From: an uncultured delta proteobacterium
Lineage (GTDB): Bacteria; Desulfobacterota; Binatia; JACPRU01
Direction of reading: 5' to 3'
DNA: 64,000 nt
Assembly: GCA_963745025.1 (NCBI GenBank)
Contig: CAVUWD010000007.1
Location: 1-64,000 of the forward strand
Position numbers and translations under genes: made by a program. How positions within the stretch are numbered: position 1 is the stretch's first letter; each line of letters begins with the position of its first letter. The notes below the pieces were generated by a model. That model did not search any database and was not told the origin of the DNA. It saw nothing but the letters and a program-made list of their open reading frames with translations. Shown piece after piece: positions 3,630 to 3,839 of this stretch.

Positions 3630-3674
3630 CTAAGGACCCACCACCTCACACGTCACCATTCGAAGATACATCAT
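3630..3674 (-). CDS. Putative 14-aa small ORF MMYLRMVTCEVVGP behind an extended Shine-Dalgarno
   Basis: AAGGAGGTGATCCAGCC (3691-3675) is immediately followed by ATG ATG TAT CTT CGA ATG GTG ACG TGT GAG GTG GTG GGT CCT TAG. Confidence 0.4.
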   Translation of the reverse strand: MMYLRMVTCEVVGP

Positions 3675-3839
3675 GGCTGGATCACCTCCTTCCTCGGCGT
3701 GTACACCACGCAGGCCCAGAGCACCTGCCAGCCAGGAACCGACCGCCGAATTGCCGGCCCGAGGCCCGGTCCGCGGCGTCCCGCCCCATTACGGGAATCG
3801 TCGCGCCAAGGGGCTCGTGAGACCCCGACCGTTGGGCGC

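Follow-up and report, generated by a model that had tools for sequence, protein, structure and literature searches.

A single-copy small RNA gene joining an extended Shine-Dalgarno sequence to a 14-codon reading frame in an uncultured delta proteobacterium: a longer version of the rre/Ms_IGR-5 kind

What is a 17-nt perfect complement of the 16S rRNA 3' end doing directly in front of a reading frame of only 14 codons? This question is raised by a locus near the beginning of the window, by which we mean the whole 64,000-nt stretch of DNA analysed here, from the genome of an uncultured delta proteobacterium. An earlier note, made from the letters alone, had pointed to the complement on the minus strand, and comparison with the genome's own 16S 3' end confirms it: minus strand 3691-3675 reads AAGGAGGTGATCCAGCC, and the 16S gene (G000:C16; the single 16S gene detected in the genome) terminates in ...CCTGCGGCTGGATCACCTCCTTTCTAAGG, also written ...GCGGCTGGATCACCTCCTTTCTAAGG. 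The complement extends right to where the tail of the 16S gene ends, and the AGG at 3694-3692 adds three pairs, one of them G.U (3692), giving a 20-bp duplex over 3694-3675. As the note had held, this pairing goes well beyond a normal Shine-Dalgarno (SD) interaction, with 17 perfect or 20 total base pairs and a computed energy of -40.7 kcal/mol vs. -9.2 kcal/mol for canonical AGGAGG. The two features on which the question turns are the following.

3675-3694, minus strand: extended Shine-Dalgarno AGGAAGGAGGUGAUCCAGCC, complementary to the 16S 3' tail GGCUGGAUCACCUCCUUUCU; perfect over 3691-3675, with the G.U pair at 3692.
3630-3674, minus strand: 14-codon open reading frame encoding MMYLRMVTCEVVGP, with the stop codon TAG at 3632-3630.

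Within the SD, the 5' part (toehold segment) is GAGGAAGGAGG and the extension is UGAUCCAGCC, the mutated form of the extension, as designed, being UGAUCCAG. The match is not a product of chance, in agreement with the estimate made at the outset: allowing up to two mismatches, the 17-mer has a single match in the window, and none of 100 dinucleotide shuffles gives any. In the whole 5.6-Mb genome, the sole other exact copy of the 17-mer is the 16S gene itself. A 16/17 copy at G000:C16:331453-331469 (L004) falls within the coding region of valS, encoding GKEVILP there, and was set aside as a chance match. That the locus is not an rRNA fragment was also correctly read, as the flanks of the 17-mer differ from the 16S gene and the SSU rRNA model has no Rfam match in the window. 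A broader search of the window gives no Rfam match at gathering level and no tmRNA, and ARAGORN finds 0 tRNA or tmRNA genes in it. The plus strand does read GGCTGGATCACCTCCTT, identical to the 16S end, as would be the case for a relic of an rRNA operon or for a plus-strand RNA mimicking the 16S tail; however, both the missing SSU match with unlike flanks and the fact that promoter, ORF, and G.U pairs all fit the minus strand make such an origin extremely improbable.

The element is widespread among relatives of this bacterium. BLASTN recovers the region in six of the seven other genomes of the family (77-93% identity, up to ~500 nt), and across the class a shorter core centred on the SD and the ORF. 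Scanning one genome per species for AGGAGGTGRTCYA, a 15-45 nt gap, and GTRAGGTGGTGG yielded 113 loci, two of which (L076, L100) were dropped as chance matches. Among the 80 records whose titles were listed, most are Candidatus Binatia or "Deltaproteobacteria" MAGs, and the others include Methylomirabilota/NC10, Myxococcota, Thermodesulfobacteriota, Acidobacteria, and one Cellulosimicrobium, with the caveat that MAG labels are unreliable. With the motif slightly relaxed, 103 of the 201 class genomes (one of the 103 being unpublished) have a match, in each case exactly one, and the reversed-pattern control has 0; the count is a lower bound because a family scored 0/11 still has a divergent short form. 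A short form is seen in family f14 (L152, ~1470-1680; L153), where TTGACA, a 17-nt spacer, TATGAT, and a short leader are followed by the SD GAGAAAGGAGGTGGTCAA, a 12-codon ORF MSDSCSCEVTET, a hairpin at the stop codon, and a terminator.

Because the pattern used for fetching fixes the SD core, the SD of the loci fetched with it is invariant partly by construction. We also looked at 19 relatives picked by BLAST and not by pattern: 13 have GGUGAUCC, five show A>G (one of them also C>U), and one has an inserted A. The 16S end is identical in five genomes with differing SD variants, so that A>G and C>U each turn a pair with the rRNA into G.U. The SD consensus of the class is GAAAGGAGGUG(A/G)UC(C/U)AG.

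The reading frame follows the 17-mer directly (ATG ATG TAT CTT CGA ATG GTG ACG TGT GAG GTG GTG GGT CCT TAG), in the place and length first reported, and the second SD-like GAGGTG seen inside it is present at 3647-3642 and conserved. An in-frame start 7-11 nt past GGAGG, open to a conserved stop, is found in 101/101 distinct copies, and the other two frames are open in 0/101. Among these copies the start codon is GTG in 70, ATG in 30 (as in the family of the window), and TTG in one; the stop is TAG in 93; and the ORF spans 12-19 codons, mostly 13 or 14. Since the frame is kept in every distinct copy, translation, or at least initiation, matters. Two overlapping ORFs, 3671-3859 on the minus strand and 3673-3933 on the plus strand, look like high-GC shadow frames. 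At window position 3668, the RNA contig of run X20 (one of the metatranscriptome runs described below) has G for the plus-strand A, changing ORF codon 3 from TAT to CAT, which is natural variation in the variable N-terminal half.

Does this conservation mean that the 14-aa peptide is the functional product, with the RNA features only tuning its synthesis? The frame being kept in all copies speaks for this, as does a C-terminal motif common across phyla: the N-terminal half of the peptide varies freely, and the C-terminal half reads T-V-I-C-E-V-V-A-S in the class and T-[RC]-E-V-A-[AV]-[SR] in Actinomycetia. However, the conservation check that had been suggested for peptide and nucleotide sequence gives a different picture at the level of codons. 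The "Cys" codon that precedes Glu is variable in its first base (TGT, AGT, CGT, GGT, for C, S, R, G), and the segment after it is nearly invariant, wobble positions included (alignments A1, A2).

3638-3649, minus strand: GUGAGGUGGUGG, near-invariant columns of A1 and A2, holding the internal SD-like site and the 5' arm of helix P5 (3645-3639).

First-base variation next to wobble positions that are fixed within helix P5 indicates an RNA-level constraint on the 3' half of the ORF, a signature that weighs against the peptide as the product, and from the alignments we argue that much of the apparent peptide conservation is in fact RNA conservation. In addition, the alpha-proteobacterial peptides RreB and RreR, discussed below, are described in the available text of PMC5711450 as having no mutual similarity and as unstructured in solution. 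Overall, a functional peptide is an unlikely explanation, if one worth keeping in mind.

The constraint becomes understandable from the structure around and behind the ORF, the main elements of which are as follows.

3627-3638, minus strand: stop-codon hairpin GGUC, CUUA (loop), GGCC, with 90% of cells paired in 51 sequences.
3567-3602, minus strand: 3' side of P7, CGGGUG (3602-3597); P8 (3589-3583 with 3579-3573); 3' arm of P5, CACCACC (3573-3567).
3525-3565, minus strand: 3' terminal hairpin, CCCC (3565-3562) with GGGG (3534-3531), the likely RNA 3' end; the Rfam Ms_IGR-5 alignment puts its terminator stem there and ends at 3525.

Helix P5 joins the end of the ORF to the CACCACC ~70 nt downstream; its pairing is complete (100%) across 51 sequences, which show wobble changes and a single double change. 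The stop-codon hairpin covaries as GGCC..GGCC, GGCG..CGCC, and GGCGCGC..GCGCGCC, the last two in other phyla. Although not part of the fetch pattern, CACCACCG is matched exactly by 88 of 131 loci and in variant form by a further 27. The helices were set by eye and their pairs then counted because RNAalifold, run on the 62-sequence alignment and on a 26-sequence subset, found few helices, in structures that were sparse or implausible. Over the 23 pairs tested, pairing is seen in 85.8% of cells, a share that falls to 29-47% once the 3' partner is shifted by 1-3 columns. Frequent G.U pairs fit the minus strand only, for example in 20/51 rows at one P8 pair.

Window 3472-3536 holds a long, imperfect inverted repeat, GAGGGGGTCCA ... 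TGGACCCCCTC; it begins where the RNA contigs end, is conserved in the family only, and may serve in processing or termination or be an element of its own. Further downstream, CGCCGGGG at 3407-3414, followed by TTT, can pair with CCCCGAGCG at 3557-3565. A longer form of the transcript ending near 3404 is possible because this pairing resembles the stem that closes the RNA (terminator) in L085, L043, and L132. Between the RNA gene and the next gene, window 3367-3406 holds a perfect 16-bp hairpin, in which no T-run was found; on each strand it is hit by the terminator portion of the CsrC model (29.4 and 24.8 bits), and it is probably a two-way terminator.

The predicted fold also brings the SD itself into play, through a segment directly after the stop codon that resembles the 16S tail.

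3619-3630, minus strand: look-alike GGCCGGGUCACC, with 10 of 12 letters as in the 16S GGCUGGAUCACC.

In the minimum free energy fold of 3833-3525, the 3' part of the SD, GGUGAUCCAGCC (3684-3675), pairs with the look-alike, and the 5' part of the SD stays free. The SD/look-alike duplex has -19.3 kcal/mol, a value reached by 0/200 shuffles; a control with the reversed SD proved invalid, the SD segment being nearly a wobble palindrome, and shuffles were used instead. Compensatory forms occur in relatives from the family (L014; L013/L133), which carry GGCAGGAUCACC, or GCUGGACCAUC together with the SD GGUGGUCCAGCC. Another large group has CGCUGGGUCACC ~22 nt past the stop, with a 12-bp pairing that includes the GUG start. 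An alternative partner of the look-alike is the ORF-internal GGUGAC (3657-3652), and complementarity of the look-alike segment to an ORF-internal GGUGAUC/GGUGAC is seen in 21 of 22 strong cases. Because the SD/look-alike pairing passes the 1% level in only 24 of 108 distinct copies, such a switch may be limited to certain lineages.

Upstream of the SD, the RNA has a domain of its own.

3700-3833, minus strand: structured 5' domain of ~135-140 nt, with hairpins P1, P3, and P4.
3826-3823 with 3813-3810, minus strand: hairpin P1, covarying in 62 sequences.
3757-3753 with 3744-3739, minus strand: stem P3, covarying in 62 sequences, with the invariant loop UCGGCG at 3749-3744.
3728-3724 with 3714-3710, minus strand: hairpin P4.

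The P3 loop is complementary to the CGCCGA directly before the SD, and the two change together (TTGGCG/CGCCAA) in 2 of 62 rows; from this one double change, a pairing between loop and pre-SD segment may be suggested, tentatively. Neither the short forms (L152, L153) nor the actinobacterial copies discussed below have this 5' domain.

Is this structured element an RNA in its own right, or part of the transcript of a neighbour? Its surroundings and the metatranscriptomes bear on this.

3840-3868, minus strand: promoter-like site TTCTCA (3868-3863), 17-nt spacer, TACAAT (3845-3840), from which a start near 3833 is inferred.
3514-3846, strand not given by the contigs: metatranscriptome contig cover (X15, 3514-3846; X16, 3524-3824; X17 and X20, 3530-3824).

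This minus-strand site is the sole sigma-70-like site in 3250-4000, where shuffles give a mean of 0.1, and many relatives have its -10 box (TAnnnT) in the equivalent position of alignment A1. Of the sampled words of 3367-3873, a fraction of 0.54 or more is present in each of six metatranscriptome runs, which come from five studies. All four runs compared on 2900-4400 (four studies) gave one entire contig each, of 295-333 nt at no less than 99% identity. The contig ends (on the 3' side 3530, 3530, 3524, and 3514) agree with the promoter and with the end of the Ms_IGR-5 alignment at 3525, and give a slight hint of where the RNA ends. Over 2900-3511 and 3869-4327, these four RNA runs gave no contig cover except for a short 90-95% piece (X20), an absence that carries no weight. 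We infer transcription from the minus strand, and the RNA gene accordingly extends from ~3833 to ~3525 on that strand, is ~300 nt long, and is single-copy.

A cis-acting leader or attenuator of a neighbour would have serS, which ends at 3954 on the same strand, 260 nt upstream of the element, or the EthD-domain gene at 2803-3264 as candidates, and a short ORF within a structured leader is the classic attenuator design. However, the next gene downstream, the EthD-domain gene, is convergent, and neighbours differ among the loci: clustering of neighbour genes found no conserved neighbour, the best shared cluster covering 37 of ~114 loci, in an analysis muddied by shadow ORFs. The convergent gene and the missing conserved neighbour argue that the RNA is not a leader, and both its own promoter-like site and RNA contigs that stop short of both neighbouring genes add to this, leaving the leader very improbable. 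Between the serS stop and the promoter, window 3887-3950 is a multi-copy repeat of ~60-70 nt with the hairpin GCCGGCGAAGCCGGC; at least 14 further copies (76-96% identity) lie on other contigs of the same genome, and there are a few in the sister genome G001.

RNAs of a comparable design have been described. The rreB RNA of Hahn et al. (RNA Biol 2016/17) is a 165-nt mRNA of alpha-proteobacteria with a 17-nt SD and a 14-aa ORF, and according to the available text it is bound to 30S subunits (strong co-sedimentation) and weakly translated (PMC5711450). Its stability depends on the start codon, the RNA being stabilised without one; analogues across alpha-proteobacteria (rreR) are described with it, and the available sections leave the function open (PMC5711450). 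The locus studied here resembles rreB/rreR, as far as those sections portray them, in several respects. The rre type has at least 16 nt (16-17 nt in rreB/rreR) of perfect complementarity to the organism's own 16S 3' end abutting the start of a conserved 14-18 codon sORF, and here the complement is 17 nt, or 20 with one G.U, and abuts the start codon of such an ORF. Both are stand-alone small transcripts, as seen here in the promoter-like site, the whole RNA contigs, and the convergent downstream gene, and both are conserved within clades in variable genomic contexts. In both predicted structures only the 5' part of the SD is free, which matches the seed model proposed for rreB in the consulted portion of PMC5711450. 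Unlike rreB, which is 165 nt and, in that portion, restricted to alpha-proteobacteria, the RNA of the window is ~300 nt (about twice the length of rreB) and has an extra structured 5' domain; the likeness is one of description, 30S binding having been shown for rreB.

As much of the rreB paper as was available (PMC5711450) makes no mention of Actinobacteria, Rfam, or CC2171, and a literature search with subscription journals outside its scope found nothing linking Ms_IGR-5 or CC2171 to extended-SD small mRNAs; within the same scope, it found rreB without functional follow-up. A plasmid BLAST for an alpha-proteobacterial copy returned eight weak matches; one of them, H3, is a chance match in a coding region with no Rfam hit, and RF01867 was not found on the H3 plasmid record.

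Ms_IGR-5 (RF02471) comes from a Mycobacterium smegmatis screen, and CC2171 (RF01867) from a Caulobacter screen. On the window, RF02471 scores 15.7 bits (E = 0.1 on 231 nt), below its gathering cut-off of 45; none of six non-actinobacterial loci passes that threshold, and the Cellulosimicrobium locus (L059) scores 64.6 bits. Covariance model R1, which we built from 51 non-actinobacterial sequences, matches the genome of L059 once (E = 1e-11), and when 61 Actinomycetia genomes were searched with it, the top nine new loci all proved to be RF02471 (48-121 bits; two of the nine in unpublished genomes). Matches of R1 at ~21 bits over 97 nt are probably antisense 16S ends. This reciprocal recovery by R1 shows common descent or a common architecture with RF02471. 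The core order is likewise that of Ms_IGR-5: GAAAGGAGGUGGUCC, short ORF, GUGAGGUGG, stop in a hairpin, CACC, terminator. Unlike the RNA of the window, the actinobacterial RNAs begin ~10 nt before the SD and are without a 5' domain. Among the published actinobacterial copies, the encoded peptides include MNSSWTREVAAR and MSSTWTCEVAAR, and the stop is TAG. In the accessible text of PMC8780764, PMC8079986, and PMC4974804, Ms_IGR-5 appears among the sRNAs as a separate transcription unit with RNA-seq support and ribosome footprints, and an extended SD is not mentioned for it there.

For the Caulobacter sRNA CC2171, the consensus of model RF01867 begins ...GAAAGGAGGUGAUCCAG, the same 17 nt as here. 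On the window this model scores 12.3 and 10.7 bits vs. a cut-off of 75, with only the SD part aligning. CC2171 is probably the Caulobacterales rre noted by Hahn et al., and its expression in Methylorubrum is indicated in the portion of bioRxiv 10.1101/2022.01.24.477521 that was available. Among control genomes, RF01867 matches Thermus thermophilus below the cut-off, and a similar element may exist there.

A short frame within a structured RNA also recalls tmRNA. The stop codon of tmRNA likewise lies in a hairpin loop. However, the RNA described here has no tRNA-like domain (none by ARAGORN or Rfam) and has its own SD and start codon.

What might such an RNA do? The locus is real, transcribed, and deeply conserved, and is a longer version of the known rre/Ms_IGR-5 kind. 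Our main reading, to which we give a probability of about two in three, is that it encodes a stand-alone, single-copy, structured small mRNA of the rreB/Ms_IGR-5 kind, with a ribosome-tethering SD, that is remodelled by 30S binding or attempted translation. By analogy with rreB, the 17-20 nt complement would give the RNA a far tighter hold on the 30S subunit than a normal SD, and ribosomes would initiate on the 14-codon ORF, with translation that is probably poor. As long as the RNA is free, the look-alike at 3630-3619 would hold the start codon and the 3' part of the SD, the last codons of the ORF would be locked in P5, and the stop codon would sit in its hairpin loop. The single-stranded 5' part of the SD would then serve as a toehold for the 16S tail, which would displace the look-alike, and ribosome binding followed by attempted translation would reshape the RNA and determine its lifetime. 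The RNA would, on this reading, report on, or be controlled by, free 30S subunits. For the RNA of the window, the duplex and the 30S tethering are predicted, and rreB, as far as PMC5711450 was available, is the experimental counterpart.

The earlier note had offered two kinds of 30S-engaging RNA, and these fare differently. A ribosome-anchored short ORF that governs its own RNA fits what is described for rreB, namely its 30S co-sedimentation, weak translation, and start-dependent stability, and this part stands. The other was a bulk trap or decoy for 30S subunits, acting in sequestration, hibernation, or 16S 3'-end maturation, to which the ORF would be irrelevant. The very stable predicted duplex with the 16S tail, a complement that extends to the tail's very end, and the co-sedimentation of rreB with 30S subunits (PMC5711450, available part) are what such a trap would show. 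However, the gene is single-copy, and a trap leaves the strict conservation of start, frame, and stop unexplained; in addition, overproduction of the ribosome-binding rreB left growth unchanged, and its authors judged ribosomes to be far more numerous than the rreB RNA, in the sections of PMC5711450 at hand. Bulk trapping, decoy, hibernation, and maturation roles are thus unsupported, and we consider them improbable.

Beyond the ribosome-remodelled small mRNA that we favour, a broader and much more speculative proposal can be made, which we regard as doubtful. One ancient family might extend over at least Actinobacteria, the Binatia-type class, and Methylomirabilota, and probably alpha-proteobacteria, its members being ribosome-availability switches with the free 16S 3' tail as ligand. 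A 30S subunit at the toehold would free the look-alike or the 5' domain for other partners, for example the SDs of mRNAs, and the forced, poor translation of the mini-ORF would set decay. If true, a regulatory output would be coupled to the pool of idle small subunits.

Extended-SD small mRNAs were published in 2016/17 for alpha-proteobacteria only, and this locus shows the design in uncultured phyla of soil and sediment. What is new is the set of phyla, the ~140-nt structured 5' domain, the RNA constraint on the 3' half of the ORF, the stop codon in a covarying hairpin loop, and the look-alike that can sequester the SD. The comparative data provide handles for further work in the toehold, the look-alike, P5 over the last codons, and the stop codon in its hairpin loop. 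Homology to an actinobacterial Rfam family with culturable hosts, such as Streptomyces and Mycobacterium smegmatis, makes the question testable there.
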